This document shows positions 3,489 to 33,032 of a stretch of 64,000 bases of DNA, piece after piece. The stretch is from the IMG/VR virus record IMGVR_UViG_3300033148_003000; one strand, given 5' to 3'. The translations under genes were made by a program, and so were the position numbers. Source of the stretch: an uncultured virus (IMG/VR IMGVR_UViG_3300033148_003000). Taxonomy: Duplodnaviria > Heunggongvirae > Uroviricota > Caudoviricetes. Below the pieces are notes generated by a model that had not been told where the DNA came from, made no database searches, and saw only the letters and a list, made by a program, of their open reading frames with translations. How positions within the stretch are numbered: the first letter of the stretch is position 1; each line of letters starts with the position of its first letter.

Positions 3489-4859
3489 TTATATACTGTC
3501 TATTGAAACATCAACTAAATCTTTGGTTCTAAATCCTTTAAATGCTGGTTCAGTTAATGATTTACCACCTTTATTATTTGTTGACAGTTTCCTATAACTA
3601 ACTTTTACCAATAAATCTTTTCTTTCCAATAATTGTTCTTGTTTTGCCCAAATTTGATTTCTGGTATAATCATCAAATCCTGTACCAACTCTTACTTCGT
3701 TATCATCATCCAACTTAATTACAATTTTACCCAAATTATTTTCGTATTTCCCTTTACCTTCTTCGAATCCTTTTATTCGAAATTCGCTATCATGACGTGG
3801 TTTATATCTAAGAATATTTTTAGTTCTTTTATATTCGTATGGTTTTGAACCATCTCTAAGAATTAAACCTTCCCAACCTTCTTTATGACATAATTTCACT
3901 AGTTCTTTATATCTTTCATCGTTGCATTTCATATTTTCAGCAATTTTTATTCTTGGATAAGATGTCACCATATACATATCAGTTAAAAAACCCAAACCTG
4001 ATTTTATATCACCATTAACATCTAACTCTGTATCAATATCTTCAATACGATGAATAAAATTTCGGCCACATTCTTGTTTAAAAAATTCTTCTTGATCTAA
4101 CATGTCAAATATCACAAATGAACACTCTTCAAAAAACTCTTCTGTTGATGTTTTATGTTGATCATCAATCCCAGTGTTTTCATCTATCCAAACTATCTCA
4201 CCACAAAATACCAATCTGTCAACTGGTAATTTTTCCAACTGTTGTCTGATATTTATATAACGATCTTCAGGAATTAACTTACCAGATCTACCAATAAGTA
4301 AAAGTTTATCGTTAGGTTTGGTTACCGTTACGTTAATTCCATCAAATTTGCGTCCTACATAGGTGGATTGAAATGGAACTTTGTCACCATTTTTATCATA
4401 ATTACTTAACCGAGTTACAACAAATTTCTCAGTTAAATCCATAGATGTTGGTATTGAATCTTTCCAAACTTTGTTGATTGATGTTTTACCCATACCTAAT
4501 CTTAGGTCTTTAAAAAGAATTTGTAACATGAACTTTCGATCTTCTAGATAAAAATCATCTAAAAATCTTTGAATCTCTTGAATATCACCATTTGTAGAAC
4601 CTTTTTGTTCACCCAATTTGTTGAGTATTTCTTTATATTCATTCCAATTATATTCTAAACGTTTTCTTGGATTATTAATCGTGCGTTTCCATACAACTTT
4701 ATTATAACCTTTTTCAGCAATTTTAAATTTTAAATGGGGATTATACGTGTAGTATAAAATTTCTTTTAATAATTGATTGTGTTTAAAACTCTTTAACAAA
4801 TCCAACTGTTGATTTCCTGAACAATTTCTCAATTTTTCTAATTGTTGTAGTAGATTCAT
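3489..4859 (-). CDS. lig: ATP-dependent DNA ligase
   Basis: KFDG (motif I), CGEIV, FVIFD, EGLILR, LRYK, OB-fold VGTGF; N-terminal DNA-binding domain. Confidence 0.93.
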   Translation of the reverse strand: MNLLQQLEKLRNCSGNQQLDLLKSFKHNQLLKEILYYTYNPHLKFKIAEKGYNKVVWKRTINNPRKRLEYNWNEYKEILNKLGEQKGSTNGDIQEIQRFLDDFYLEDRKFMLQILFKDLRLGMGKTSINKVWKDSIPTSMDLTEKFVVTRLSNYDKNGDKVPFQSTYVGRKFDGINVTVTKPNDKLLLIGRSGKLIPEDRYINIRQQLEKLPVDRLVFCGEIVWIDENTGIDDQHKTSTEEFFEECSFVIFDMLDQEEFFKQECGRNFIHRIEDIDTELDVNGDIKSGLGFLTDMYMVTSYPRIKIAENMKCNDERYKELVKLCHKEGWEGLILRDGSKPYEYKRTKNILRYKPRHDSEFRIKGFEEGKGKYENNLGKIVIKLDDDNEVRVGTGFDDYTRNQIWAKQEQLLERKDLLVKVSYRKLSTNNKGGKSLTEPAFKGFRTKDLVDVSIDSI

Positions 4860-4861
4860 GA

Positions 4862-5875
4862 TTATTTCCTTTCTTGTATATTTGATGGTGAAAATCCAAC
4901 AAAATCAATAGTATTGTCAATTTTATTTTCTATTGAAGTAATAGAATTAACAACTTTTTGAGTTAAGTTATTGTATTTGTGACAGTCAGAATCAATGTAA
5001 TCTAAGTGATTTAACACTAAATGAGTTGGTCTATTATACATAATAGCTTGTTTAACAATTTCAGGATCAAAACGACCTACACGTCTCTTTAATTTTGTAA
5101 CAGAAGTGTATTCAACAATATCTTTATCACTTTTAGATTCCTTAGTTAATGTTTCCCAATCAATTTCATTTTTTAAAGGACCAGAATTTCCAGCAACTCT
5201 AATAGGATAAGTTCTTAAGACAAGCACAATTTCAGTTATATCTAAAGGGTTTAAACCAACTTCAGTAACAAAACCTGATGCAGTAGTGTCTCTGCTAGTC
5301 ACATATGGATAATGCGGAGAATGTAATAAAGATAAGCCAAAACCTTGGGTACCTTCAATTACAGCTTTATGTCCTTTATCAAGTTTTTCTCTTAGAAAAG
5401 GAATAACAGGTTTAACAAATCTTTTTAAAGTCACATCATCTTTTGCTAAAATATTGTTATTTCTTCTTATCCTTCTCATAACTGCTGCACCAGTTCCACT
5501 TAACGTAGAACCAATGTTATTTCTTAAATCACTATTTTTTTCATTAATTAAATCATTTTCAGAAATTATCATTGCATTAGGATCAATAATCAATTTTTCA
5601 GGCGTTAATTTTGTAAGTTCTAACTCCTTTAGTAAAATTTTTACATCTATATAACTTCCAGCAGGTAATATACAATAAACATCTTCTAAAATTGCTGCAG
5701 TAGGTAATTGCCTCAAAACAACAGTTTTTCCATAATTGTCAACAACTGTATGACCAGAATTACTACCACCCACCCTAATGACGATATCAGCATTATTTCT
5801 TTTTACCCAAAAATGAGTAACCTTACCTTTACCTTCTGAACCGTATTGACCACCAACTACAACCGTAACACTCAT
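4862..5875 (-). CDS. purZ: Adenylosuccinate synthetase homologue with PurZ/PurZ0 signature (candidate N6-succino-2-amino-dAMP synthase)
   Basis: GGQYGSEGKG (Ser at the PurA Asp13 position), NSGHT, GSTLSG, EGTQG, YPYVTSRD, RTYPIRVAGNSGP, TSVTKLKRR, NHLDY; short 337-aa form. Confidence 0.8.
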   Translation of the reverse strand: MSVTVVVGGQYGSEGKGKVTHFWVKRNNADIVIRVGGSNSGHTVVDNYGKTVVLRQLPTAAILEDVYCILPAGSYIDVKILLKELELTKLTPEKLIIDPNAMIISENDLINEKNSDLRNNIGSTLSGTGAAVMRRIRRNNNILAKDDVTLKRFVKPVIPFLREKLDKGHKAVIEGTQGFGLSLLHSPHYPYVTSRDTTASGFVTEVGLNPLDITEIVLVLRTYPIRVAGNSGPLKNEIDWETLTKESKSDKDIVEYTSVTKLKRRVGRFDPEIVKQAIMYNRPTHLVLNHLDYIDSDCHKYNNLTQKVVNSITSIENKIDNTIDFVGFSPSNIQERK

Positions 5876-5893: not shown

Positions 5894-6016
5894 TCACATT
5901 TTCTTAATGTTATTCCAAATTTCTATACATTGACAAATAACCATACCTAGAATTGTACCCAATCCAACTCCATAAATTCCTATTATAAATACTAATGATA
6001 AAACGTTACTTAACAT
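5894..6016 (-). CDS. Small membrane protein (40 aa)
   Basis: Manual translation MLSNVLSLVFIIGIYGVGLGTILGMVICQCIEIWNNIKKM; AAGGA RBS. Confidence 0.5.
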   Translation of the reverse strand: MLSNVLSLVFIIGIYGVGLGTILGMVICQCIEIWNNIKKM

Positions 6017-6961
6017 TTTTATTATCCTTTAAAAACTTTATAAACTCCTGTGTCTTTCTATTACATTTTTCTACAATATTCTTGACAATTTTTTTTATTT
6101 TTAATAATTTTAATTAAATTATCTTTATAAATATTTCCCATTAAAATCTTATCATACATTAAACAATCTTTAAATATTTCACATGGAATTACATCCCCAT
6201 TAACTTTTATAACCAATTTTTCATGTTTTAAACATTCACATTCTCTAGTTAATTTCCAGCCTAATTTTCTTTGTAATCCTAATCCTACTTTAATGTTTTC
6301 TAAACTATCTAATTTAGCTAATTCTATTCTTAAATCTTCTATATCATATTCCAATTTATTTTTGTTTTTTAATGCTCTACCTTGATACACCAAATTTAAT
6401 AATCTAATTTGATCTACGCCCATTATTTGAAGATTTTTAATTTTTTTACTCATATTGATCATATTGATTTTACATGGTACAATATGAACTTCTACATTAT
6501 ATCCATAATATAAAGCTTTTAATATCATATCTCTAGTTGTATTAAAACCACTAGCTACATTAGGTAAATAATGAAATACTAAATTAATATTTCTATCAAT
6601 ATATTTATCTAAAAAAATATCTGTACATCCTGATGTATAAATTGTTAAATTAATATTTTTCTTTATTATTTCATTAATAATTTCAAAAATATTTGGATGA
6701 TTAAATGATTCTCCACCGGATAAATTAATATTTTTTATTCCAATTTTATTTATTTCTTTTATCAATGATTTTATTTTATCGATGGAAATATTATTATAAT
6801 ATTCCCACACAGTACTTTCTGATGAACAATATATACAATCCATTTGACAATGATTGGTTATTTCTAATGTAATTTCTTTATATGTTGACATTATATAAGA
6901 TCCTTCATTTAACATTTTTATTATCCTTTAATAATTTTTGAAAAACTTTATAAACTCCTGT
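6010..6961. repeat. Direct repeat pair (6010-6051 and 6909-6961) flanking the radical SAM gene
   Basis: TTAACATTTTTATTATCCTTT plus AAAAACTTTATAAACTCCTGT in both copies; the second has an 11-nt insertion between the halves. Confidence 0.9.
6061..6915 (-). CDS. Radical SAM protein with SPASM/twitch domain
   Basis: CQMDCIYC (CxxxCxxC), SGGE, C-terminal C...GDVIPC...GNI...C. Confidence 0.9.
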   Translation of the reverse strand: MLNEGSYIMSTYKEITLEITNHCQMDCIYCSSESTVWEYYNNISIDKIKSLIKEINKIGIKNINLSGGESFNHPNIFEIINEIIKKNINLTIYTSGCTDIFLDKYIDRNINLVFHYLPNVASGFNTTRDMILKALYYGYNVEVHIVPCKINMINMSKKIKNLQIMGVDQIRLLNLVYQGRALKNKNKLEYDIEDLRIELAKLDSLENIKVGLGLQRKLGWKLTRECECLKHEKLVIKVNGDVIPCEIFKDCLMYDKILMGNIYKDNLIKIIKNKKNCQEYCRKM

Positions 6962-7080
6962 ATCTTCTTTATTTCCATTTAAAAACCCACATGGATATTC
7001 TTCTTTTATTTTATGAGATAACATATCCAAATCATTCACATTATCAGATTCTAGAATAAAAGGCATATGGTTCTAAAATT

Positions 7081-7386
7081 TTATTTAACATGATTTGACC
7101 TTTCAGGTAATAGGTGGTAATATTTACTCACCAAATTATTGTAAAGAACACGATCACTATCAGCTAATTCAGGAAAATATCCTTCATTATCCTTGGCTTT
7201 ATACCAGAACCATTCTAAAACAGTTTCCAATTCTTCTCCAGTTAGAAACACATCTTGTACACTTTGACGCAGTAGATCTTTTTGTTGTTTAATAACACCC
7301 TTTTTATTTTCATTTTGATATTCACGTTTTTCTCGTACTCTATCAACTCTTTCTTTACGTCGTTGTGGGTTTTGTCTTTTAGTCAT
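7081..7386 (-). CDS. Hypothetical basic protein
   Basis: ORF coupled to the upstream gene; Arg/Lys-rich N-terminus. Confidence 0.55.
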   Translation of the reverse strand: MTKRQNPQRRKERVDRVREKREYQNENKKGVIKQQKDLLRQSVQDVFLTGEELETVLEWFWYKAKDNEGYFPELADSDRVLYNNLVSKYYHLLPERSNHVK

Positions 7387-8131
7387 TGTTCAACTCACTA
7401 AACCCCAAATGTTCTTCATAAATATCAATTACCAATTTGTTAGCTAATTTTCGACATGATTTCTTTGAAAATGGGTGTAATTCATTATTTTCAAAATTTT
7501 CCATCAACAGATTAAACTTATTTAATTTTGTGTCAAGTAAATTGTCGATTTCATCATGTAATAAACTACCGTTTTTTATTTCTTTAATTACATCTCGTTC
7601 TTGTAGTGGAAATGTAATCCGACCTGTTGTTATTAATTCTTCACATTCAGACATCAACCTGTATACATGTGAGGCTTTTTTTACTTCTTTATAACAAGTT
7701 CGATTTGGATTGTTATATTTATCCCATTCACTTCTCATATAACCGTCGAAATGTCCAATAAAACTTTTACTGATGAGTTTTTTAATATTGGTCATTAAAT
7801 ATTCACCTAAAGAAGATATTTGTACAATATTAGATTTATTTACAAAACACAATTCGATAATATTTGGATTACCTTTCATAACTAAATTTACAAATTTGCG
7901 TAATTCATAAAACTTTCTATCAATTGCGTGTTTTGTATTACGACCATTTTCATCTTTAGAAACTTCATTACAGTTCCACTCTTCAGTTCTCTCAATCCCT
8001 AAGATATATTCTTTAGAAGGTAAAAATACACCTTGATAATCAACATCAGATTCAGACGTATTTGTACCATAAAGATGGGAACCTGATTTTATTTCTAAAA
8101 TAATTTCGTTATTTGTTTTATTATCTTTCAA
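7379..8131 (-). CDS. Pol-beta-superfamily nucleotidyltransferase
   Basis: GSHLYG...SDVD.QGVF, KGNPNIIE, KKASHVYRL motifs. Confidence 0.88.
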   Translation of the reverse strand: MKDNKTNNEIILEIKSGSHLYGTNTSESDVDYQGVFLPSKEYILGIERTEEWNCNEVSKDENGRNTKHAIDRKFYELRKFVNLVMKGNPNIIELCFVNKSNIVQISSLGEYLMTNIKKLISKSFIGHFDGYMRSEWDKYNNPNRTCYKEVKKASHVYRLMSECEELITTGRITFPLQERDVIKEIKNGSLLHDEIDNLLDTKLNKFNLLMENFENNELHPFSKKSCRKLANKLVIDIYEEHLGFSELNND

Positions 8132-11591: not shown

Positions 11592-12272
11592 CTATAAAAT
11601 CACAATACCAGGATCAACTATTTCTCCGTTTTCTTGTCTTAAATAATTTCCTTCATCTGTTAAAAGAACATTGGCCAATCCTGTGTCAAATATTTCTTGA
11701 CCTTGTAATATTTCACCTTTTTTTATTTTTTCTTTCCAAAAATCTTCATCAAATTCTTGTAAACTCATTTTATTATAAAAATTTAACATTTTTTGATCTG
11801 TTTCAACCAATTTTTTATGATGATTTTCAATAAGCTCTTTATCACCACTTAACTCCACCAATGATGAATTATGAACCATCATCTCTGAATCTTTATAAAC
11901 AACTCTAACATTACCTGCTAAAAAAATCATAGATGCAGCACTCGATCCATCAGCAGTTATAATAGTTTTTATATCACATATCATATTATTTTTTAAATGA
12001 CTACAAATATTTAAACCCACGTTAATCATACCACCATTAGAATTAATAAAAACAGTCACGGGTTCGGGGATATAATCGACAACTGTTTCTTGTTGATTAA
12101 GATCAAAATAATTCACATTATTAAGATGTCTAATTACAGACGTTGCAAGTGGGTATTCTATAGATCCATAAATATTGATTGATCTTTCCGCTATAATTGG
12201 AAATGTGTGATCTTCTTCAAATTTACCTTCATAATTACACAATAATTTGGACATTTTCTTTAGATTGGACAT
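11592..12272 (-). CDS. clpP: ClpP-like serine protease (S14)
   Basis: INSNGG, SSAASMIF (Ser nucleophile region), MMVHN (His), GLAN. Confidence 0.85.
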   Translation of the reverse strand: MSNLKKMSKLLCNYEGKFEEDHTFPIIAERSINIYGSIEYPLATSVIRHLNNVNYFDLNQQETVVDYIPEPVTVFINSNGGMINVGLNICSHLKNNMICDIKTIITADGSSAASMIFLAGNVRVVYKDSEMMVHNSSLVELSGDKELIENHHKKLVETDQKMLNFYNKMSLQEFDEDFWKEKIKKGEILQGQEIFDTGLANVLLTDEGNYLRQENGEIVDPGIVIL

Positions 12273-15200
12273 CTTTGATTTCCTTTTCTATTTGATTATT
12301 ATCTTCTTCAATTTCATTAACTTCTTTAGATTTTTCACTTTCATCAATTTGGTCAATATTTTGATCGACTTGTTTCTTAACTTTTTTCTCAACTATAACA
12401 TGTTTTTGATAACCCGATTTAACATCTTCATTACTGGTTAATTTATTTAATGAAAAGGTTTTTTCAAAATCTTCTTCACTAAAACAACATTTAAATGGTC
12501 CAGCAATATTCTTTATAAATTGATCAACATAAAATGCAATATTGTAATCGGGTTTACCTTTCCCTTTACATTCAGGGCATTCTATTAATTGGTTGTTTTC
12601 AAAAATAACACCTTTATTGGAACAATGCAAACATTTGGGTGCATCTTCTAACAATTTACAGTTTATATGATACACAGTTTTAGTATCAACGACATAACCT
12701 GGTTTTGTAGTTGGTAATAATTCTTGTGTTCCTGTAACTTTTTTAACACATGTTCTACATGGACTCCATGAATTACCAATAACTTCAACACTTATTTTTA
12801 AATCATTTAGATTACCTTGAACAAAATTTTGAATATCTTCATTAGTATCATCTAAATAAATATTATCACTAACTTTCTTACCTGGAATAAAAAACCGTAA
12901 TTCTGTTATTTCGTAGAAATCTTCCAATTTTAATCCTTTAATGATTGATTCTTGTTCAGTTTTATCTGAAAAATGTAAAAGAATATCATCAATTTTATTA
13001 CTATCATTTAAATTCCACAAATAGTTTAACATATATAAATAATCTAATCTAGGTAATTTTTTTGTATTGGAGACATTTTTACGTTGAACTTTCTTTTTAG
13101 TTAATACTTCCCCTTTAGTTTGACATTTTGGGCAATTTTTATATTGATATACTTTACCTTCAATACACTCGGAACAACCTTTATTAACTTTCTCTTTACA
13201 TTCTAAACATTCTGTAAAAATCTTAACTTCTTCTTTAGGAACATAACTTCCTTTAATTTCTGTTCCTAATTTATAATAATGTATCTTATCCCCACTATTA
13301 TAACCATGATCTTTACCAGTTTGATCCTGTTTTTGACGTAATAATTCCATATGGGCTTGTCTACCCTTTAATTTTCTTTCAGTTTCCCAAAGATTTTTAA
13401 TTTTTTGATCATATGTCTCAACAGTTTGAGACAACCCAGTTCTAGTACACATTTTATCGATTGGCATTTGTCTTGATTGAATCTTCAAAATTGTATCACT
13501 ATATATTTTGTTAACTGAAAGGAAATCATCGAAAAATATCCATTTTAAAACATTTTCAAAATGTTGATTTATGTATTCAGATTTAGCCGATGATTTCAAT
13601 CCACCACCCTTGATGGTAATTTTATCATCATAATCTAAAAGACCATAATTTTTAGACTTATAACTCAACATTCTTTTCCAACTATCTTCATATTCTAACT
13701 CAATACCTTCTGTAAGTTTTGAAGATATTTCTTTGGTCATGTTTCCAATATCTAAATCCCTCGAAAGTGGTGTGAACACTACACCGTCAGTATCACAATT
13801 TATTGGAATACAATCTCTGTCTATTAATTCGTCTCTGACTTGTTTGATTAACCGCTGACCTTCAGTAGTTACAAATTCTGCACCTTTAGGATTGTTGAAA
13901 GAGAAAAATTCTGAACCAAAAGCTCCATATAAACTATTTATAACGATTTTTAATGCGCCCTGTAGACCGTCTATGTCTTTATATTCGGACGTATTTTTTA
14001 AACCTTTACTTGATAAATCGTTTTTCTTCTTCTTGGCGTCTAATCTAATGTTAGTCATGTTTCTTAACATTTCTAGACAAACATCTAAATCATCATTAAC
14101 GGGTTTAATCCCATGTATTAACATCTCACTAGGATAAAGTGAAGCTATATCTACCTTATGGACGTTATCAATGATTCCTTCTTGATAACATGCAACAAAC
14201 CCACCTGGATATTTGATTTTATCTAATGGAAGAGGAATTGAATGTCGGTAGTATTTCCCTTTCTCTCTATCGAATCTTGGTCTCAAATATTCTCTAACCA
14301 TCAAAAGTTCCCAAATTGTTGCAGAACCACAATGTGAAAGTTTTTGAAATGTTGATGGTACAATTTGTGCCAATGCAAATGTTGATGTAATCAAGATCTT
14401 GAATATTTCATGAGTTTCCCACGTATCTTCATACGCATATTTAAGAACCTTATCACGATCTTCTAACCAAGTTTGGTATATTTTGTTGCCTTCTATATAT
14501 GTACGTTCTTCATTACCTTGAGAGTTATCATATAAATGAAAATAATCTCTCGCTAAGTCTTTTAATTTAAAATTTTTCATGTCTCTTTTGATAGCATTGG
14601 CACGTTTAACTAAATGAATAACATCTATGATTTGTCTACCTTTTATGTAAACAGGTTGAAAATGTTCAGATGTTTCACCGACTTTTAACACAGATGTATA
14701 ATCAGAATATTGAGTTTTCTCGTGATTTTCTTCAACAACACGACCATAATATGAACGTATATCATGTTCTTCTAAACGTCTACGAATAAACTGATTATCA
14801 AAGTTACTAGAATTATATCCCGAAATTACGTCTGGGTCAAGGTCTTGGATGAGTTCTTCTGTTCGTTGTAATATTTCAACTTCATTGTCTTCATTATTCC
14901 AAACCAACTCTTTTTCACCAAAATTAGTGTAAACAGAATTTAAAAATATCTGATTATCAAAGGGATCAAGTCCCGTACAATTGTGAACAAATATATTATT
15001 AGCTAAAAAATTATGATCTTCATCATCTATTTCTAAATCATAAACTTCTTCAAAAGAACCTTGATTAATAGATTTTATTTTTACAAAATTTACATCATTA
15101 TTTTCATAATAAATTCTTTTAGATTTGTGAATTTGATTTATTTTTTCAACTTTCTTTTCACCAAATTCACCTATAATATTATGAAATTTATAAGCTTGAA

Positions 15201-16599
15201 TACCATTTATATATAAAGTATACATATCTTTATAAGATTCTTTTCTATTATCTATATGTTTAGAATAACCAGAACGTATACCAAATTCTAACAACATATA
15301 TTGAACTTGTTTCATTAAAACAATAGATGTGGTATAATAAACATAACTTAATCTTTCCTCTGTATTTTTAATTGTACCATCACAATAAAATAATCTATTT
15401 AAAAATAATTTTCTATTATCTATAGTAGAATGTATAACTTTTTCTGGAATAAATTTTTCATATGAATATTTACCAAATAATCCATATTTTTTTAATAAAT
15501 CATTTAATGGATGTGTATTATATTCACCACCCTGTTTTCTTCCTATTTTATTAGTAGTTAATCTACAAGTATTATTACCTTTTATAATATTCAATTTTAA
15601 ATTATATTTTTCACATATTTCTTCTAATTCATTAATAACAAATTGAGAAACAGTTGAAATAATACAACTATCTTTTGACTTACACCCTTCAGTTATATAA
15701 TATGCTAAAAATTTTATTTCATTTTCATTTAAATTATATTTATTTGTATCTGTTAATATTTTTGTATTATTAGGTATACAAATATAATCATTTAATTTTA
15801 AATCTTTAACTTTTTTATAACCGTTTTTAGTTAATATTTCATGATTTTTAGTAGCTATTATTTTTTTATTAAATAATGATTTAATTTCAAAAGTTTCTTT
15901 TTTTCCTTTATTTATTTTTCTTTTAACTTTACAAATTTTAATTTTGTTATTTTTATCAACAGATAAAACATGATTATTTGAATCCATATTTTTAATTTTA
16001 ATATCTTTTTTTAATAATGGATCATATATATCTGTATCACCAGACAAACATTCAATATCAAACGTTAAAACTTTGATGTCATCAATTGTTAAACCTTTAA
16101 ACAGTGTAATACCAGTATCGATAAATACTTGTTCATGATACCCTAAACTATATATTTCTTTACCCTGGATGTCACAATTTTTAATATCCCAAATAGATTC
16201 ATGGTCTGTTTTAAAAACTTTATTAAAACAATAAACCACGTCTTTAGGGATTGTCCAAAAATGTGAATAACTATTAATAACTTTTATATAATATTGATAA
16301 TGTAAATTCCCTTTTAGAGGTTCAACATGAAAGATTTTGTTTCCAAAACGGTCTTTATGATTCAACAAAGTTTTTGCGAAGTCTTTAGAATGAACCAAAA
16401 ACCAAGAATTCCACCCGATGGTTTCACTAACAACAAAAGAATTTTTTAAATTTTTAACTGGATCATTACCGTAATTTTTAAAATAACGATAATAAACAAC
16501 TGCTTTAGTTGGTGTAACAGGTTCTAACGATACAACGTTGGTTCGTGGATCTGATCCTGTCAATGATGTAGGTAATTGTTCAGGTAATTGTTTAGTCAT
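12235..16599 (-). CDS. polB: Family B DNA polymerase with intein and Cys-rich C-terminal region
   Basis: ExoI FDIE|CTG, ExoII GYNSSNFD, ExoIII YAYED, motif A DIASLYPS, B KIVINSLYG, C DTDG. Confidence 0.95.
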   Translation of the reverse strand: MTKQLPEQLPTSLTGSDPRTNVVSLEPVTPTKAVVYYRYFKNYGNDPVKNLKNSFVVSETIGWNSWFLVHSKDFAKTLLNHKDRFGNKIFHVEPLKGNLHYQYYIKVINSYSHFWTIPKDVVYCFNKVFKTDHESIWDIKNCDIQGKEIYSLGYHEQVFIDTGITLFKGLTIDDIKVLTFDIECLSGDTDIYDPLLKKDIKIKNMDSNNHVLSVDKNNKIKICKVKRKINKGKKETFEIKSLFNKKIIATKNHEILTKNGYKKVKDLKLNDYICIPNNTKILTDTNKYNLNENEIKFLAYYITEGCKSKDSCIISTVSQFVINELEEICEKYNLKLNIIKGNNTCRLTTNKIGRKQGGEYNTHPLNDLLKKYGLFGKYSYEKFIPEKVIHSTIDNRKLFLNRLFYCDGTIKNTEERLSYVYYTTSIVLMKQVQYMLLEFGIRSGYSKHIDNRKESYKDMYTLYINGIQAYKFHNIIGEFGEKKVEKINQIHKSKRIYYENNDVNFVKIKSINQGSFEEVYDLEIDDEDHNFLANNIFVHNCTGLDPFDNQIFLNSVYTNFGEKELVWNNEDNEVEILQRTEELIQDLDPDVISGYNSSNFDNQFIRRRLEEHDIRSYYGRVVEENHEKTQYSDYTSVLKVGETSEHFQPVYIKGRQIIDVIHLVKRANAIKRDMKNFKLKDLARDYFHLYDNSQGNEERTYIEGNKIYQTWLEDRDKVLKYAYEDTWETHEIFKILITSTFALAQIVPSTFQKLSHCGSATIWELLMVREYLRPRFDREKGKYYRHSIPLPLDKIKYPGGFVACYQEGIIDNVHKVDIASLYPSEMLIHGIKPVNDDLDVCLEMLRNMTNIRLDAKKKKNDLSSKGLKNTSEYKDIDGLQGALKIVINSLYGAFGSEFFSFNNPKGAEFVTTEGQRLIKQVRDELIDRDCIPINCDTDGVVFTPLSRDLDIGNMTKEISSKLTEGIELEYEDSWKRMLSYKSKNYGLLDYDDKITIKGGGLKSSAKSEYINQHFENVLKWIFFDDFLSVNKIYSDTILKIQSRQMPIDKMCTRTGLSQTVETYDQKIKNLWETERKLKGRQAHMELLRQKQDQTGKDHGYNSGDKIHYYKLGTEIKGSYVPKEEVKIFTECLECKEKVNKGCSECIEGKVYQYKNCPKCQTKGEVLTKKKVQRKNVSNTKKLPRLDYLYMLNYLWNLNDSNKIDDILLHFSDKTEQESIIKGLKLEDFYEITELRFFIPGKKVSDNIYLDDTNEDIQNFVQGNLNDLKISVEVIGNSWSPCRTCVKKVTGTQELLPTTKPGYVVDTKTVYHINCKLLEDAPKCLHCSNKGVIFENNQLIECPECKGKGKPDYNIAFYVDQFIKNIAGPFKCCFSEEDFEKTFSLNKLTSNEDVKSGYQKHVIVEKKVKKQVDQNIDQIDESEKSKEVNEIEEDNNQIEKEIKDVQSKENVQIIV
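14980..16050 (-). mobile_element. Intein with LAGLIDADG homing endonuclease (357 aa)
   Basis: Starts CLSGDT, block B TKNH, LAYYITEG and LNRLFYCDG, ends VYDL...FVHN then Cys+1; visibly more AT-rich than the exteins. Confidence 0.93.
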
Positions 16600-21166: not shown

Positions 21167-21646
21167 TTATTTATTATTATTCTCACTTAATGTAAAATCT
21201 CGGTTGTATTCAGATATCAACGTACAAATTTTATCAACTATAACATTTAATTTAACATCAGAATGCCCTTTTACGTGATGAAAATATAACTTAACAGGAT
21301 AATGTTCATAAATATTGGCGATGATTTCATCAACATCTTTTTTTAATTGTAATAATATTGGATCTCTGACTATGTTTTTGTTTGTTACATAATTAACACA
21401 ATTTTGCGAATCTGTATACATATCTATAGATTCTACATCACAACCATTTTGTAAATAATTTTTTACAACATTTTTTAAACCATATTTAATTGCAGTAAAT
21501 TCCAAACAATTACTTTTAATACCAAAAGTTGTTTTACAAAATTGATGTGATATTCTTCCATTGATTAAAACAATAAAAGAATAACTACCGTCACCAGTTT
21601 TATGTCTATAACTGGCATCGGTGTAAATTTGAATTGATTTACCCAT
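21167..21646 (-). CDS. rnhA: Ribonuclease HI
   Basis: IYTDAS, SNCLEFTA, YTDSQ, HVKGH, NVIVD. Confidence 0.9.
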   Translation of the reverse strand: MGKSIQIYTDASYRHKTGDGSYSFIVLINGRISHQFCKTTFGIKSNCLEFTAIKYGLKNVVKNYLQNGCDVESIDMYTDSQNCVNYVTNKNIVRDPILLQLKKDVDEIIANIYEHYPVKLYFHHVKGHSDVKLNVIVDKICTLISEYNRDFTLSENNNK

Positions 21647-22307
21647 TTATTTTACGCATATGAAGATGAATTAATACATCATCAATGTTTTTATAAAACT
21701 GTTCTAATGTTGAGGTATTTTCCACTGTATAATTGAAACTATGTTTGTCTAATTCTGTTTCTAAACTATCATCAGATAATTTATAACCATCTTTAACCAA
21801 ACGATCTAGGTTGGGTTCTATCCTTATGGTAATAACTTTTTTCTGAGTAAATTTGTTGAGAATTTTTTCTTCAATTATTTTTCGCCAATCATCAATAACT
21901 AAATTTTTTGATTCATTTTGTAGCAATTCTTTATTTTCTAAAGTAAATCTATTTACCCAATAATCATCACCATGAATATTTTTCATATCTGTTGAAATTT
22001 CAACTAAACCCTGGTTTTTATAATCCAATGGTAATTCTGACCATTCATCATCAAAATTTTCATTTTCAAAATGTTTAAATATATTAATGTCAACTTTTTT
22101 TAATTCACTCATTGACCATTCATAACGAAAGAAATTTTTATATTTTTCTAATTGTTCTTGAGTAATGTTATGGATATTACAAAACATTTCTTTCAATTGT
22201 TTCACAATAGTTAAAGTTTTTGTTGAATATTTTTCAGCTAAATAGTTAGCCATTGTTGTTTTACCAGAACCATTTTTTCCACTTATCATCAATAAATAAT
22301 TCATCAT
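21639..22307 (-). CDS. Deoxynucleoside monophosphate kinase
   Basis: ISGKNGSGKTT, DYWV, VIDDWR, SLETELD. Confidence 0.8.
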   Translation of the reverse strand: MMNYLLMISGKNGSGKTTMANYLAEKYSTKTLTIVKQLKEMFCNIHNITQEQLEKYKNFFRYEWSMSELKKVDINIFKHFENENFDDEWSELPLDYKNQGLVEISTDMKNIHGDDYWVNRFTLENKELLQNESKNLVIDDWRKIIEEKILNKFTQKKVITIRIEPNLDRLVKDGYKLSDDSLETELDKHSFNYTVENTSTLEQFYKNIDDVLIHLHMRKING

Positions 22308-23824: not shown

Positions 23825-24715
23825 TTACTTACCACTACTACCAAATCCTCCTGATCCTCTTGTTGTTGAAGATAATTCATCAACTTCAACAGTTTCAAAT
23901 ATTTCATCTTTTTTTATCAACAATTGTGTGAATCTTTCACCCACACTTGGGCCATATCCTGTCAAATTTCCTACATTAACCAATTGTACCAAAATTTCAC
24001 CACGATAATCGTTATCTATTACACCAACACCGTTGGTTAACATTACTTTACATCGGAGTTCGCTATTATCTTGGTTATTTCTACCATCTTTAAACAATCC
24101 AGACCTAACATAAAGTTCGCAATGATACCCATCGGGTAATTCCACAGCAATACCAGTTCCATATGTTTTACTCTCAAATGGCCCTAATTCAACCATGTTT
24201 TTGGTTAAACCAATCGATTCATCGGAAATACAACTATCTAAATACAAATCATATCCAACACTAAACTCACTCGATCTTTTCAATAAATACTTTCCTCGAC
24301 CAACATTTTTATATTTCATAAGTTTTGTATCTATATTACATTCATCTAAATGGTTGTTAATCTTGATAGTATCAAATACTGTTAATATATCTGATTGAGT
24401 AGGTGCAAATTTTACATTACTACATATTGATTTATCATCAACAATTTCTTCATTATCTACATCTTGTTCAGGATTTTTATATTCATCTTTAACTCTTTTA
24501 GCCAAAATATTTACAACTTCTGTTGTCACATCTTCACCTTGTTCGATACGTTCCATTAATCTAGTATATAAATCACATATTGTTATTTTATTTGTTACAT
24601 TTAATTTATGTAAAGACAACTTAATATCAAATGAACCCAACAATTCATTCATATTGTCTATCATTTTATTTTTTGGCAATTTACTGAATTCTTCTTTTGA
24701 TATATATTTATCCAT
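23825..24715 (-). CDS. dut: Trimeric dUTPase with N-terminal extension
   Basis: All five motifs: GYDL, RSGL, GVIDNDYRGE, GERFTQ, RGSGGFGSSG. Confidence 0.93.
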   Translation of the reverse strand: MDKYISKEEFSKLPKNKMIDNMNELLGSFDIKLSLHKLNVTNKITICDLYTRLMERIEQGEDVTTEVVNILAKRVKDEYKNPEQDVDNEEIVDDKSICSNVKFAPTQSDILTVFDTIKINNHLDECNIDTKLMKYKNVGRGKYLLKRSSEFSVGYDLYLDSCISDESIGLTKNMVELGPFESKTYGTGIAVELPDGYHCELYVRSGLFKDGRNNQDNSELRCKVMLTNGVGVIDNDYRGEILVQLVNVGNLTGYGPSVGERFTQLLIKKDEIFETVEVDELSSTTRGSGGFGSSGK

Positions 24716-30112: not shown

Positions 30113-30420
30113 ATCTTTTTTTTAATTATTTATTTAGTAATTTATATTAATAAATAATATATTAATAAATAATATATTAATAAATAATATATTAATAAAT
30201 AATATATTAGTAAATAATATATTAATAAATAATATATTAATAAATAATTTATATTTTCTTTTTTTTTAATTATTTATTTAGTAATTTATATTAATAAATA
30301 ATATATTAATAAATAATATATTAGTAAATAATATATTAATAAATAATATATTAATAAATAATTTATATTTTCTTTTTTTTTTTAATTATTTATTTAGTAA
30401 TTTATATTTAGTAATTTATT
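30113..30420. repeat. AT-rich hierarchical repeat array (15-bp TAATAAATAATATAT units in two blocks); candidate origin
   Basis: About 7 plus 5 units; leader TTAATTATTTATTTAGTAATTTATA occurs three times; at the strand switch. Confidence 0.9.
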
Positions 30421-31628: not shown

Positions 31629-33032
31629 ATGAAAACTTTCAGAAGAAATGTTAAATTAATAGACAAAAATAACCTATCAATACCAGAATATATAGCTTTA
31701 TACAAGGCTAATCCTGCATTATGGGGTTACGAACAAACTACAATCTTCTATGATGAAAATTTGGGAATTGTTAATAAACCTCATTATTACCAATGTTTGG
31801 TAATGAATGGAACATATTCAAACAAGATGACTGTTGTACTTAAGTGTAGACAGTGTTTAGAAGGATCGACATCTATAGATTTACCTTTAAATGAATCAAT
31901 ATCTATAAAAGAGTTATATAAATTATATAAAAATGAAGATTGGTTACCAACAATACTTTCTTTAGACAAAAATAACAAATTGGTAACTGATGAAATAGTT
32001 GATATATGGAAAGTTGGAACAAGATCAGTATTTAAATTATCCTTTGATAATAAATCATATGATTCTATTTCAACACTGGAACATAAATATAACACATCCC
32101 AAGGATATTTAGAATTATCCAAATTAAGAAAAGGTGATTTGGTTATTTGTAAACAAAATAACCAAATGGTTTATAAACCCGTGAAATCAATTGAATATTA
32201 TGGGGAAGAAGAATGTTATGATTTAACTACCAAAATTCATCATAATTACATCGCTAATGGTGTATCAACACATAATTCAGGATTTTCTACAGCGTTGACA
32301 ACTTTATTTGCACATGATGTTCTTTTTGGTCTAATCAAAGGAATTCTTTTTGTATCTATTAGTAAATTTCACGCAGAAGAATTAATGGATAAATTCTATA
32401 AAGTATTAGATTCTATAATAGATCCACGTTTTAAGGTTAGTTATGTGCGTAAAACAAAAACTGAATGTGAATTTGTCAATGGTGTAAAGGCTAGATCTTT
32501 ATCTAGTAATCCAAAAACCATGATAGGGTTTACTGGATCTGTATTATGGGATGAAGCAGGTCAATTTGATAAACAATTGAGTGAAGAAGTTGCAATAAAT
32601 CTTTTCCCATCAATTACAAAACCTGGAACTCGTATGTATGTTGTTTCAACACCATTTGGTAAGAACAACGTATTTCATAAATTATGTACAGAATCAAAAG
32701 AATTATGTAGAAATTTAGATTTAGATGATGTAGGACCTAAACTAATCAAAGTACATTGGAAAGATGTACCTCATGTTATGAAAGAAGCTCATAATTTACG
32801 TGCTCATTGTCCAACGGAAACAGCATGGGATATGGGTTATTGTTTAAAATTTGGTGATGGTACGTTGGATTCATTATTTCCATATGAATTTATGCGTGAT
32901 TATGCATATAGTAATGTTGAAGAAATATTACCATTTAATTTGGAACAATTGGTTTTAATGGATAATTCAAAAGATTATTTAATAAAAGAATCACCTTTGT
33001 ATTTACCAACTTTACAATATCAAGGATTTTAA
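31629..33032 (+). CDS. terL: Terminase large subunit, ATPase part, with mini-intein
   Basis: YYQ, KCRQ|SGFST Walker A after splicing, VLWDEA Walker B, VSTPFG coupling motif. Confidence 0.9.
   Translation: MKTFRRNVKLIDKNNLSIPEYIALYKANPALWGYEQTTIFYDENLGIVNKPHYYQCLVMNGTYSNKMTVVLKCRQCLEGSTSIDLPLNESISIKELYKLYKNEDWLPTILSLDKNNKLVTDEIVDIWKVGTRSVFKLSFDNKSYDSISTLEHKYNTSQGYLELSKLRKGDLVICKQNNQMVYKPVKSIEYYGEEECYDLTTKIHHNYIANGVSTHNSGFSTALTTLFAHDVLFGLIKGILFVSISKFHAEELMDKFYKVLDSIIDPRFKVSYVRKTKTECEFVNGVKARSLSSNPKTMIGFTGSVLWDEAGQFDKQLSEEVAINLFPSITKPGTRMYVVSTPFGKNNVFHKLCTESKELCRNLDLDDVGPKLIKVHWKDVPHVMKEAHNLRAHCPTETAWDMGYCLKFGDGTLDSLFPYEFMRDYAYSNVEEILPFNLEQLVLMDNSKDYLIKESPLYLPTLQYQGF
31854..32276 (+). mobile_element. 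Mini-intein (141 aa, no endonuclease)
   Basis: CLEG start, STLEHK block B, CYDLT...THN then Ser+1; interrupts Walker A. Confidence 0.92.

Follow-up and report, generated by a model that had tools for sequence, protein, structure and literature searches.

A PurZ0-like adenylosuccinate synthetase homologue in an AT-rich phage with a family B DNA polymerase, and its relatives in a bacterial operon

The synthetase gene and its immediate neighbours

The window analysed here is a 64,000-nucleotide (64-kb) stretch of the uncultured virus record IMGVR_UViG_3300033148_003000, and at 4862..5875 on its minus strand lies a gene for a PurZ0-like short enzyme of the adenylosuccinate synthetase (PurA) family. 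The enzyme has serine at the position of Asp13 of PurA (Ser13), leucine at position 303, a VAGNSG loop insertion and an H-L-D GTP motif; its catalytic core is intact, and in phylogenetic trees it falls within a superclade of Ser13 sequences that holds the characterised PurZ and PurZ0 enzymes. An earlier note, made from the letters of the window alone, had proposed that the gene might belong to a phage with 2-aminoadenine (Z) in its DNA. In the open reading frame (ORF) listing the gene is a single minus-strand frame of exactly these coordinates, stop codon included, which starts with ATG and encodes 337 aa. The translation contains GGQYGSEGKGK, EYTSVTKLKRRVGRF, RTYPIRVAGNSGP and LNHLDY, so that the four motifs picked out in the note (GSEGKG, EYTSVTKLKRRVGRF, RTYPIRVAGNSGP and NHLD) are all present, and inspection of the sequence reveals a Shine-Dalgarno-like GAGAAAGGA upstream of the frame.

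The stop codon of the PurZ-like gene is followed after 2 nt by the start codon (ATG) of a gene for an ATP-dependent DNA ligase (3489..4859, minus strand; from the ORF listing with domain and PHROG annotation) and, given this spacing, the two genes are probably co-transcribed. A consensus scan found promoter-like sites to be no commoner than in shuffled sequence and detected no terminator. On the other side, and also on the minus strand, a gene for a radical SAM/SPASM enzyme (6061..6915; PF04055, PF13186) lies directly upstream, with a small hydrophobic ORF of 40 aa seen by inspection in the gap between them (5894..6016, minus strand). The early-gene block near the synthetase (6061-8131 and 2174-2572) holds, besides the radical SAM/SPASM gene, an RlaP-family nucleotidyltransferase (PF10127) and an MqsA-like helix-turn-helix protein. 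An identical synthetase is on record in a contig of 165,479 bases, so the window amounts to about 39% of the genome; results on gene content cover its 84 ORFs, with about 100 kb of the genome outside view.

Family assignment and active-site residues

The protein matches the Pfam adenylosuccinate synthetase family (PF00709) at 5.4e-50 and PHROG 1211, labelled '2-aminooxy adenylosuccinate synthetase', at 9e-76. Against the NCBIfam models it scored 250.0 bits for PurZ (NF038379, cut-off 300), 275.8 bits for archaeal-type PurA (NF003295, cut-off 368) and 196.9 bits for PurA (TIGR00184, cut-off 395.55), and thus lies under every PurA equivalog cut-off as well as under that for PurZ. The PurZ model gave 367 bits for the PurZ0 of phage Wayne, 325 for that of Archimedes, 396 for VP2 PurZ and 418 for Bhz20 PurZ, and two representatives with Asp13 scored above the cut-off for archaeal PurA (P0267, 540 bits; P0260, 377.5 bits). 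The sequence matches in the PDB were PurA of Pyrococcus horikoshii (3.5e-48), 7VF6 (1.2e-43), phiVC8 PurZ (1.5e-32) and S-2L PurZ (1.3e-24). Entry 7VF6 is titled 'crystal structure of PurZ0' and, according to the portion of PMC12884076 consulted, is the PurZ0 of Gordonia phage Archimedes. A model of the synthetase predicted with the help of an alignment, with a predicted local distance difference test score (pLDDT) of 68 and a predicted template-modelling score (pTM) of 0.74, retrieved PurA, PurZ0 and PurZ together in a fold search without discriminating between them.

Residues were mapped through MAFFT alignments to E. coli PurA, gap-free around the sites and numbered as in the mature E. coli protein. 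GSEGKG aligns on GDEGKG, which places Ser at Asp13, and at positions 302-304 the window enzyme has K-L-K where E. coli has G-R-R, hence Leu at Arg303 and Lys at Arg304; the two substitutions assigned by eye in the note, Ser for Asp13 and Leu for Arg303, were therefore correct. The loop after Val273 is two residues longer than in E. coli (VAGNSGPLKN against VGAGPFPT) and closely follows that of Wayne PurZ0 (VAGNSGPMKN). Lys16, Asn38, His41, Thr129, Arg143, Gln224, Val273, Thr301 and Arg305 are all retained. In the text of PMC8342488 available to us the Ser adjoins the 2-amino group of dGMP, Arg303 of PurA balances the O2' of inosine monophosphate (IMP), with its PurZ counterparts (S-2L R244, phiVC8 K267) sitting far off, and the PurZ insertion draws the conserved Val toward C2'; the same text links the Ser, the Arg303 region and the loop insertion to selectivity for dGMP and for deoxyribose.

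The note had taken the change of Asp13 to Ser and the loss of Arg303 together as marks of PurZ. The first part stands: section 24 of PMC12884076, in the excerpt consulted, gives Ser for every one of 147 PurZ/PurZ0 sequences from phages and Asp for 99% of those in the PurA group. The second does not hold in general, since S-2L PurZ, as it appears in the partial text of PMC8342488, keeps an Arg, so that loss of Arg303 is not in itself diagnostic; within the clade of the window enzyme described below, Arg occupies this column in 9 of 34 rows, which makes it a weak marker. The loop insertion and the Ser are, judged on the alignments, the better PurZ markers, and the window enzyme has both.

The use of GTP by PurZ0 was reportedly described by Tong and co-workers in 2023. 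At positions 331-333 the window enzyme reads H-L-D and E. coli PurA K-L-D (K331-L332-D333), so that, as the note had it, NHLD retains the GTP-motif Asp. PurA, five rows of the PurZ0 clade and all 34 rows of the clade of the window enzyme share Asp at position 333, where VP2 and Bhz20 PurZ have Asn. PDB titles describe PurZ bound to ATP or dATP, and the shift to ATP/dATP is presented as a PurZ adaptation in the portion of bioRxiv 10.1101/2025.10.22.683976 consulted. Section 24 of PMC12884076 prints 'ATP and GTP, respectively' for PurZ0 and PurZ; the PDB titles and the Asn/Asp difference at 333 suggest that the order of nucleotides is inverted in that excerpt. Retention of Asp333 would fit a GTP-using, PurZ0-like donor site.

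Membership of PF00709, the fact that P. horikoshii PurA is the best PDB match in both sequence and fold, and the retained Asp of the GTP site would also be consistent with an ordinary auxiliary PurA, raising the synthesis of AMP from IMP during infection. The replacement of the catalytic base Asp13 by Ser at a position so nearly invariant in the PurA group, the failure to reach any of the PurA equivalog cut-offs and the separation of the window enzyme from the short Asp13 PurA in the trees, however, make this a very improbable account of the gene.

Relatives and phylogeny

Among GenBank phages, 219 records match the synthetase, all at less than 60% identity, the best (about 38.7%) being Arthrobacter and Gordonia phages with PurZ0. 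The nearest proteins in a collection of 5.8 billion are 56-63% identical, are about 345 aa long and come from contigs of up to 698 kb; their source names are those of adenylosuccinate synthetases of Nostoc, Microcoleus, Aetokthonos, Nitrospirae, Latescibacteria and Thermodesulfobacteriota. Ten of these were fetched, eight with GSEGKG and two with GGEGKG. A scan of bacteria with one genome per species found at least 562 relatives among at least 600 pattern matches, and the best 80 of the at least 562 come from many phyla. A HMMER search of 1.84 billion representatives returned 7466 matches at E ≤0.001 and 719 at ≤1e-30. When the best 150 were sorted by a regular expression for the motif, 109 had GSE, 4 GGE, 4 GDE and 7 another form, the expression failing on 26, many of them fragments.

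The tree with PurA, PurZ and PurZ0 references that the note had called for was built twice: with FastTree on 209 rows, from which representatives of less than 300 aa were dropped, with every third bacterial operon member taken and viral loci subsampled, and as a quick IQ-TREE tree of 83 rows under LG+C20+F+G4. One outgroup row of the FastTree set, 'PurA_Bradyrhizobium', proved to be an ORF extracted in error, with a branch length of 3.18, and was removed from the IQ-TREE set. Both trees have the same backbone, with canonical PurA as the outgroup (100), short archaeal-type PurA with Asp13 as a basal grade and then all of the Ser13 sequences. The window enzyme stands apart from canonical PurA in both, and on this evidence belongs to the Ser13 superclade (76 rows in the IQ-TREE tree, Shimodaira-Hasegawa-like approximate likelihood ratio test (SH-aLRT) 96).

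Within the superclade it groups with genes of the bacterial operon and with some of the viral contigs, in a clade that FastTree supports at 99 (78 rows) and IQ-TREE at 95 (34 rows). Of the 34 IQ-TREE rows, 32 carry Ser at position 13 and the other two Gly, all have Asp333 and 33 read H-x-D at 331-333. A six-row PurZ0 clade (100) excludes the window enzyme but is sister to its clade in the IQ-TREE tree (SH-aLRT 90); FastTree groups PurZ0 with PurZ in a different clade (79 rows, 95). Constraining the window enzyme and the six PurZ0 rows to one clade, a grouping named after the tree had been viewed, cost 5.38 log-likelihood units and was not rejected by the approximately unbiased (AU) test (p 0.425). 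The relation to PurZ0 thus appears close, with a branching order that depends on the tree. The PurZ or PurZ0 identity proposed in the note is accordingly upheld as far as a place in the Ser13 superclade, and not among the Asp13 PurA, is concerned; it is qualified by the missed NCBIfam PurZ cut-off and by the separate clade.

A conserved bacterial operon around the relatives

ORFs were clustered from 80 bacterial loci (L001-L080), several of them on short contigs. The synthetase ORF is present in 76 of the loci, preceded in 71 by a protein of about 690 aa and followed in 70 by one of about 346 aa, after which comes either a protein of about 203 aa (36 loci) or an unrelated one of about 252 aa (18 loci). 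Pfam describes the first protein as an RNase_H_2 exonuclease-like domain joined to a P-loop kinase, the one after the synthetase as dCTP-deaminase-like (DCD; PF22769) and the fourth gene as a deoxynucleoside kinase (PF01712). The commonest orders are exonuclease-kinase, synthetase, DCD and deoxynucleoside kinase (29 loci) and the same without the last gene (16 loci); in the example at L001 5917-10718 the four genes encode exonuclease-kinase, PurZ-like enzyme, DCD-fold membrane protein and deoxynucleoside kinase. The DCD-fold protein has weak PDB matches to dCTP deaminases and, in 61 of 62 full-length members, a hydrophobic, predicted membrane segment near residues 240-310.

The same kinds of partner recur as fusions. 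In P0122 (644 aa) the synthetase is fused to a C-terminal DCD domain, and in P0231, P0219 and P0233 (493-536 aa), which belong to another Ser13 clade, a P-loop nucleotide kinase is fused at its N-terminus; the wider tree group with this N-terminal kinase fusion spans about 480-560 aa. Among 80 viral loci, 23 have immediately downstream of their PurZ-type gene an ORF, in most cases of about 145 aa, that is similar to the DCD-fold cluster of the bacteria (26-35% identity); none of these 23 loci with a Dut/DCD-like neighbour belongs to the clade of the window enzyme. Such repeated coupling of the superfamily to proteins of the dUTPase/DCD fold and to P-loop kinases speaks for a role in deoxynucleotide metabolism. 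Likenesses of the bacterial DCD-fold protein to the Dut-fold protein of the window phage and to gp53 of Archimedes were each rejected on comparison.

In 10 of the 13 loci whose flanks were scanned (68 of 99 selected ORFs), the operon is bordered by genes for restriction-modification, nucleases, toxins or mobile elements, namely Type I or MmeI-like restriction-modification, a D12 methylase, McrB-like, NERD and YhcG nucleases, MazF, integrase/recombinase, IS200, DDE and TnpB. PADLOC has no model with a meaningful score for the synthetase or for any operon gene, and neither the operon nor PurA-like defence genes were described in anything that our literature searches brought up. Taken together the operon looks like an undescribed defence-island module.

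The synthetase is alone among the proteins of the window in resembling the operon genes, the partners being absent by BLAST. Together the phage synthetase and its operon relatives suggest that bacteria themselves use PurZ-like chemistry, and the PurZ-like gene has probably been exchanged between phage and bacteria. By the evidence of the bacterial relatives the same chemistry would also serve a purpose other than Z genomes. It is conceivable, then, that the enzyme carries out the dGMP chemistry for another end, the phage having taken the synthetase from the bacterial operon, a candidate defence or signalling system, to reshape the dG and dA pools or to disturb that host system. Its closest relatives in sequence being operon genes, its nesting in an 11-row subclade (SH-aLRT 97 in IQ-TREE) whose other members are eight rows from bacterial operons and two viral contigs, the character of the operon flanks, the membrane segment of the DCD-fold protein and the lack of a known dATP-clearing gene in the 64 kb of the phage would all agree with this. 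On the other hand, PADLOC has no meaningful model for the operon genes, the defence role is a candidate one, no further window protein resembles an operon partner, and the gene lies among replication genes beside a ligase, as expected of a DNA-precursor enzyme. We regard this alternative as unlikely.

Partner genes in the phage

The note had found no DatZ, MazZ or DUF550 gene in the window, which agrees with Pfam, tblastn and phmmer searches of its ORFs: Pfam identified no HD/DatZ, MazG/MazZ, DUF550, DUF5664, NDT-like or lyase gene, and tblastn and phmmer with reference proteins detected no DmtZ in the 64 kb. This list of expected partners was nevertheless incomplete since, in the part of PMC12884076 consulted, PurZ0 phages use DutZ, DmtZ and DUF5664, and the window does have a dUTPase-fold gene. 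The reference queries were DatZ (VP2, Bhz20), the DUF5664/DUF550 pyrophosphatase (Bhz20), Wayne gp50, gp51 and DmtZ-DutZ, and Archimedes gp49, gp51, gp52, gp53 and gp55, and their sole match in the window was the Dut domain (E 0.003-0.006).

This domain forms residues 131-296 of a 296-aa protein encoded at 23825..24715 on the minus strand and was identified as a trimeric dUTPase by PHROG, Pfam, PDB and profile searches. It is a canonical dUTPase domain, closer to ordinary Dut (best PDB match 8y1q, 66.8 bits) than to the DutZ part of Wayne (47 bits), and it scored 87 bits with TIGR00576 (cut-off 102.55). The product may be an ordinary Dut or a DutZ-like enzyme. The N-terminal part, of about 130 residues, is an orphan with no homologue other than itself in the 5.8 billion proteins; the N-terminal NDT-like domain of Wayne is likewise invisible to sequence search (PMC12884076 section 19, seen in excerpt). 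The orphan extension followed by a dUTPase recalls the DmtZ-DutZ fusion of phage Wayne. Fold searches with the extension gave no usable Atlas match (TM ≤0.35), and a single-sequence AlphaFold2 model (mean pLDDT 35) was too poor to compare. A dNMP kinase (21639..22307, minus strand; T4 gp1-like, phrog_139, PF21448) is a candidate for the phosphorylation of dZMP, and both this gene and the dUTPase-fold gene are about 16-19 kb from the synthetase gene.

Other viral contigs with the enzyme of this clade have differing neighbours and no common partner. These include PolA-UDG (L085, L086), ligase, PolX and an amino-acid:DNA transferase (L087), RtcB (L082), and GTP cyclohydrolase I, dCMP deaminase and Acb1 (L095). 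Genes for DNA modification are thus seen near the enzyme of this clade on two of them, GTP cyclohydrolase I at L095:2705-3400 and the amino acid:DNA transferase at L087:13648-14709. A 7-deazaguanine pathway in the window itself was considered and rejected, as Pfam found no QueC, QueD, QueE or TGT among the ORFs.

These neighbours bear on a further alternative, in which the Ser13 clade has diverged in substrate and the enzyme aminates another 6-oxopurine nucleotide, converting dIMP to dAMP or acting on XMP/dXMP or a 7-deazaguanine nucleotide. The enzyme lies under both curated cut-offs and in a separate clade, position 303 varies within that clade, the viral-contig member on L095 lies about 6.6 kb from GTP cyclohydrolase I, which catalyses the first 7-deazaguanine step, and in the window a radical SAM gene is directly upstream. 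Set against this, the small residue at 13 and the insertion after Val273 are common to PurZ0 and PurZ, the window has no QueC/QueD/QueE/TGT-type gene, and the radical SAM protein gave no more than weak generic matches, all far under the cut-offs. Such a change of substrate seems distinctly unlikely.

The phage and the rest of the window

The phage has about 27% GC overall, and in the window GC ranges from 0.20 to 0.35 per 2 kb. Annotation agrees with the description in the note of a very AT-rich myophage with a family B polymerase. By PHROG/Pfam annotation and protein search the family B DNA polymerase gene (12235..16599, minus strand) is split by an intein that carries a LAGLIDADG endonuclease, and its product has a best identity of 28.7%, to the PolB of a Salinibacter phage. 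The other genes of the window include primase, a DnaB-type helicase, RNase H, a Cas4-like nuclease, portal, baseplate J and wedge, and amidase. The phage has no near relation in GenBank: the DNA of the window gave no megablast match there among phages, and its portal protein no tblastn match. An exact 50-base match that would extend the window was found neither in metagenome contigs nor in viral contigs. Just upstream of the portal gene a 467-aa ORF (31629-33032) likewise matches the C-terminal portion of an intein splicing domain.

Two repeats are present. The window starts with a perfect 21-nt tandem repeat of 5.4 copies (1-114), and at 30143-30408 there is an AT-only array of 15 copies of 15 nt (alternatively with a period of 114 nt), precisely at the point at which coding strand and GC skew both change over. 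It could serve as an origin or as a region of divergent promoters.

A possible route to Z

We favour the reading in which the product of the gene is an active PurZ0-type enzyme that depends on GTP and feeds dZTP to the family B polymerase, so that at least part of the adenine of the phage would be 2-aminoadenine. The enzyme would phosphorylate the 6-oxo group of dGMP with GTP, and L-aspartate would displace the phosphate to give N6-succino-2-amino-2'-deoxyadenylate, which the host adenylosuccinate lyase could convert to dZMP. Kinases, possibly including the phage dNMP kinase, would then produce dZTP, and the polymerase would insert this opposite T, replacing at least part of the adenine of this AT-rich genome. 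The sequence signature, the intact catalytic core and the position in the Ser13 superclade are established; the choice of dGMP and GTP, the steps beyond the synthetase and any Z in the DNA are what we infer.

The position of the gene within the replication module of the phage, next to the ligase, counts in favour of this route. A number of points weigh against it. The PurZ cut-off of NCBIfam was not reached, and, with PurZ0 placed differently by FastTree and IQ-TREE, the phylogenetic bracket varies with topology. The clade of the window enzyme consists mostly of bacterial chromosomal genes, and our literature searches found no characterised member of it. We know of no Z genomes among the bacteria that carry the gene, and the enzyme alone therefore does not predict a Z genome. 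Alongside the short PurZ-like gene, three bacterial genomes encode canonical PurA at full length (565-621 bits); the short gene is therefore a paralogue and, as these bacteria keep their normal PurA, the PurZ-like enzyme would have a role outside Z genomes. In the phage none of the partner domains looked for by Pfam, nor DmtZ, was found in the window, the dUTPase domain is of the canonical kind, and the clade has no common partner on other viral contigs; without dATP removal, replacement by Z would be partial at best.

Balancing these points we give the whole route, from an active enzyme to Z in the DNA, a probability of roughly 0.45. At the level of the enzyme a GTP-dependent, dGMP-using PurZ0-type synthetase is the best-supported assignment from the residues and trees, and Z in virion DNA is plausible, where the replacement might be partial. 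A broader proposal is that of a third PurZ-type lineage common to bacteria and phages and separate from PurZ and PurZ0, which would supply Z to the genome of this phage without a known dATP-clearing partner and, in bacteria, form the core of a defence-island operon that, together with a membrane-anchored DCD-fold protein and two kinases, uses dZ chemistry against phages; this we put forward tentatively and consider doubtful.

To our knowledge, the phages known to have Z genomes are small siphophages and podophages with a family A polymerase or PrimPol and with DatZ/MazZ or DutZ/DmtZ helpers. Among the papers listed in a literature search on PurZ in phages with PolB, in myoviruses or in jumbo phages, none contained PurZ, which does not prove its absence there. 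A working PurZ-type enzyme in a large myophage with PolB and 27% GC would add a further kind of replication machinery to those that handle Z and, if true, would mean that guanine nucleotides are drawn into Z on a very large scale. The analysis also exposes a large uncharacterised Ser13 clade, with at least 562 matches in the one-genome-per-species bacterial data and a conserved operon. If bacteria do use PurZ-like chemistry this would change the picture of the origin of the Z pathway and offer new GTP-dependent enzymes for making Z-DNA.

Comparison with known systems

Archaeal-type PurA, as represented by the P. horikoshii enzyme (PDB 2D7U/5K7X; NF003295), shares the length and fold of the window enzyme and gives its best PDB matches by sequence (3.5e-48) and by fold. 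It differs in having Asp13 (GDEGKG), G-R-R-R-R at 302-306 and no two-residue loop insertion, and the window enzyme lies outside the Asp13 grade. PurZ of the Vibrio phages phiVC8/VP2 and of cyanophage S-2L (PDB 6FM1, 7ODX) has Ser13, the longer loop after Val273, the same fold and a place in the same superclade. However, it is only 27-28% identical, has F-x-N at 331-333 and uses ATP or dATP, whereas the window enzyme keeps Asp333, and PurZ genes adjoin DatZ, which is absent from the window.

The synthetase of the bacterial operon is the nearest relative, with 56-63% identity and identical signature residues, although in the phage it stands without the partner genes by BLAST. PurZ0 of Wayne and Archimedes is 36-39% identical, has Met rather than His at 331 and passes the NCBIfam PurZ cut-off (367 and 325), below which the window enzyme falls. 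The phages differ further, those with PurZ0 being siphophages of about 44 kb with a family A polymerase, in contrast to the family B polymerase, the myophage-type baseplate and the contig of at least 165 kb seen here, and the window lacks adjacent DutZ, DmtZ and DUF5664. Nonetheless PurZ0 and the window enzyme have in common a short archaeal-type scaffold (about 340-380 aa), Ser13, the V-A-G-N-S-G insertion after Val273, a replaced Arg303 and a retained Asp333 (x-x-D), and their clades are sisters in the IQ-TREE tree, where the AU test does not separate them.

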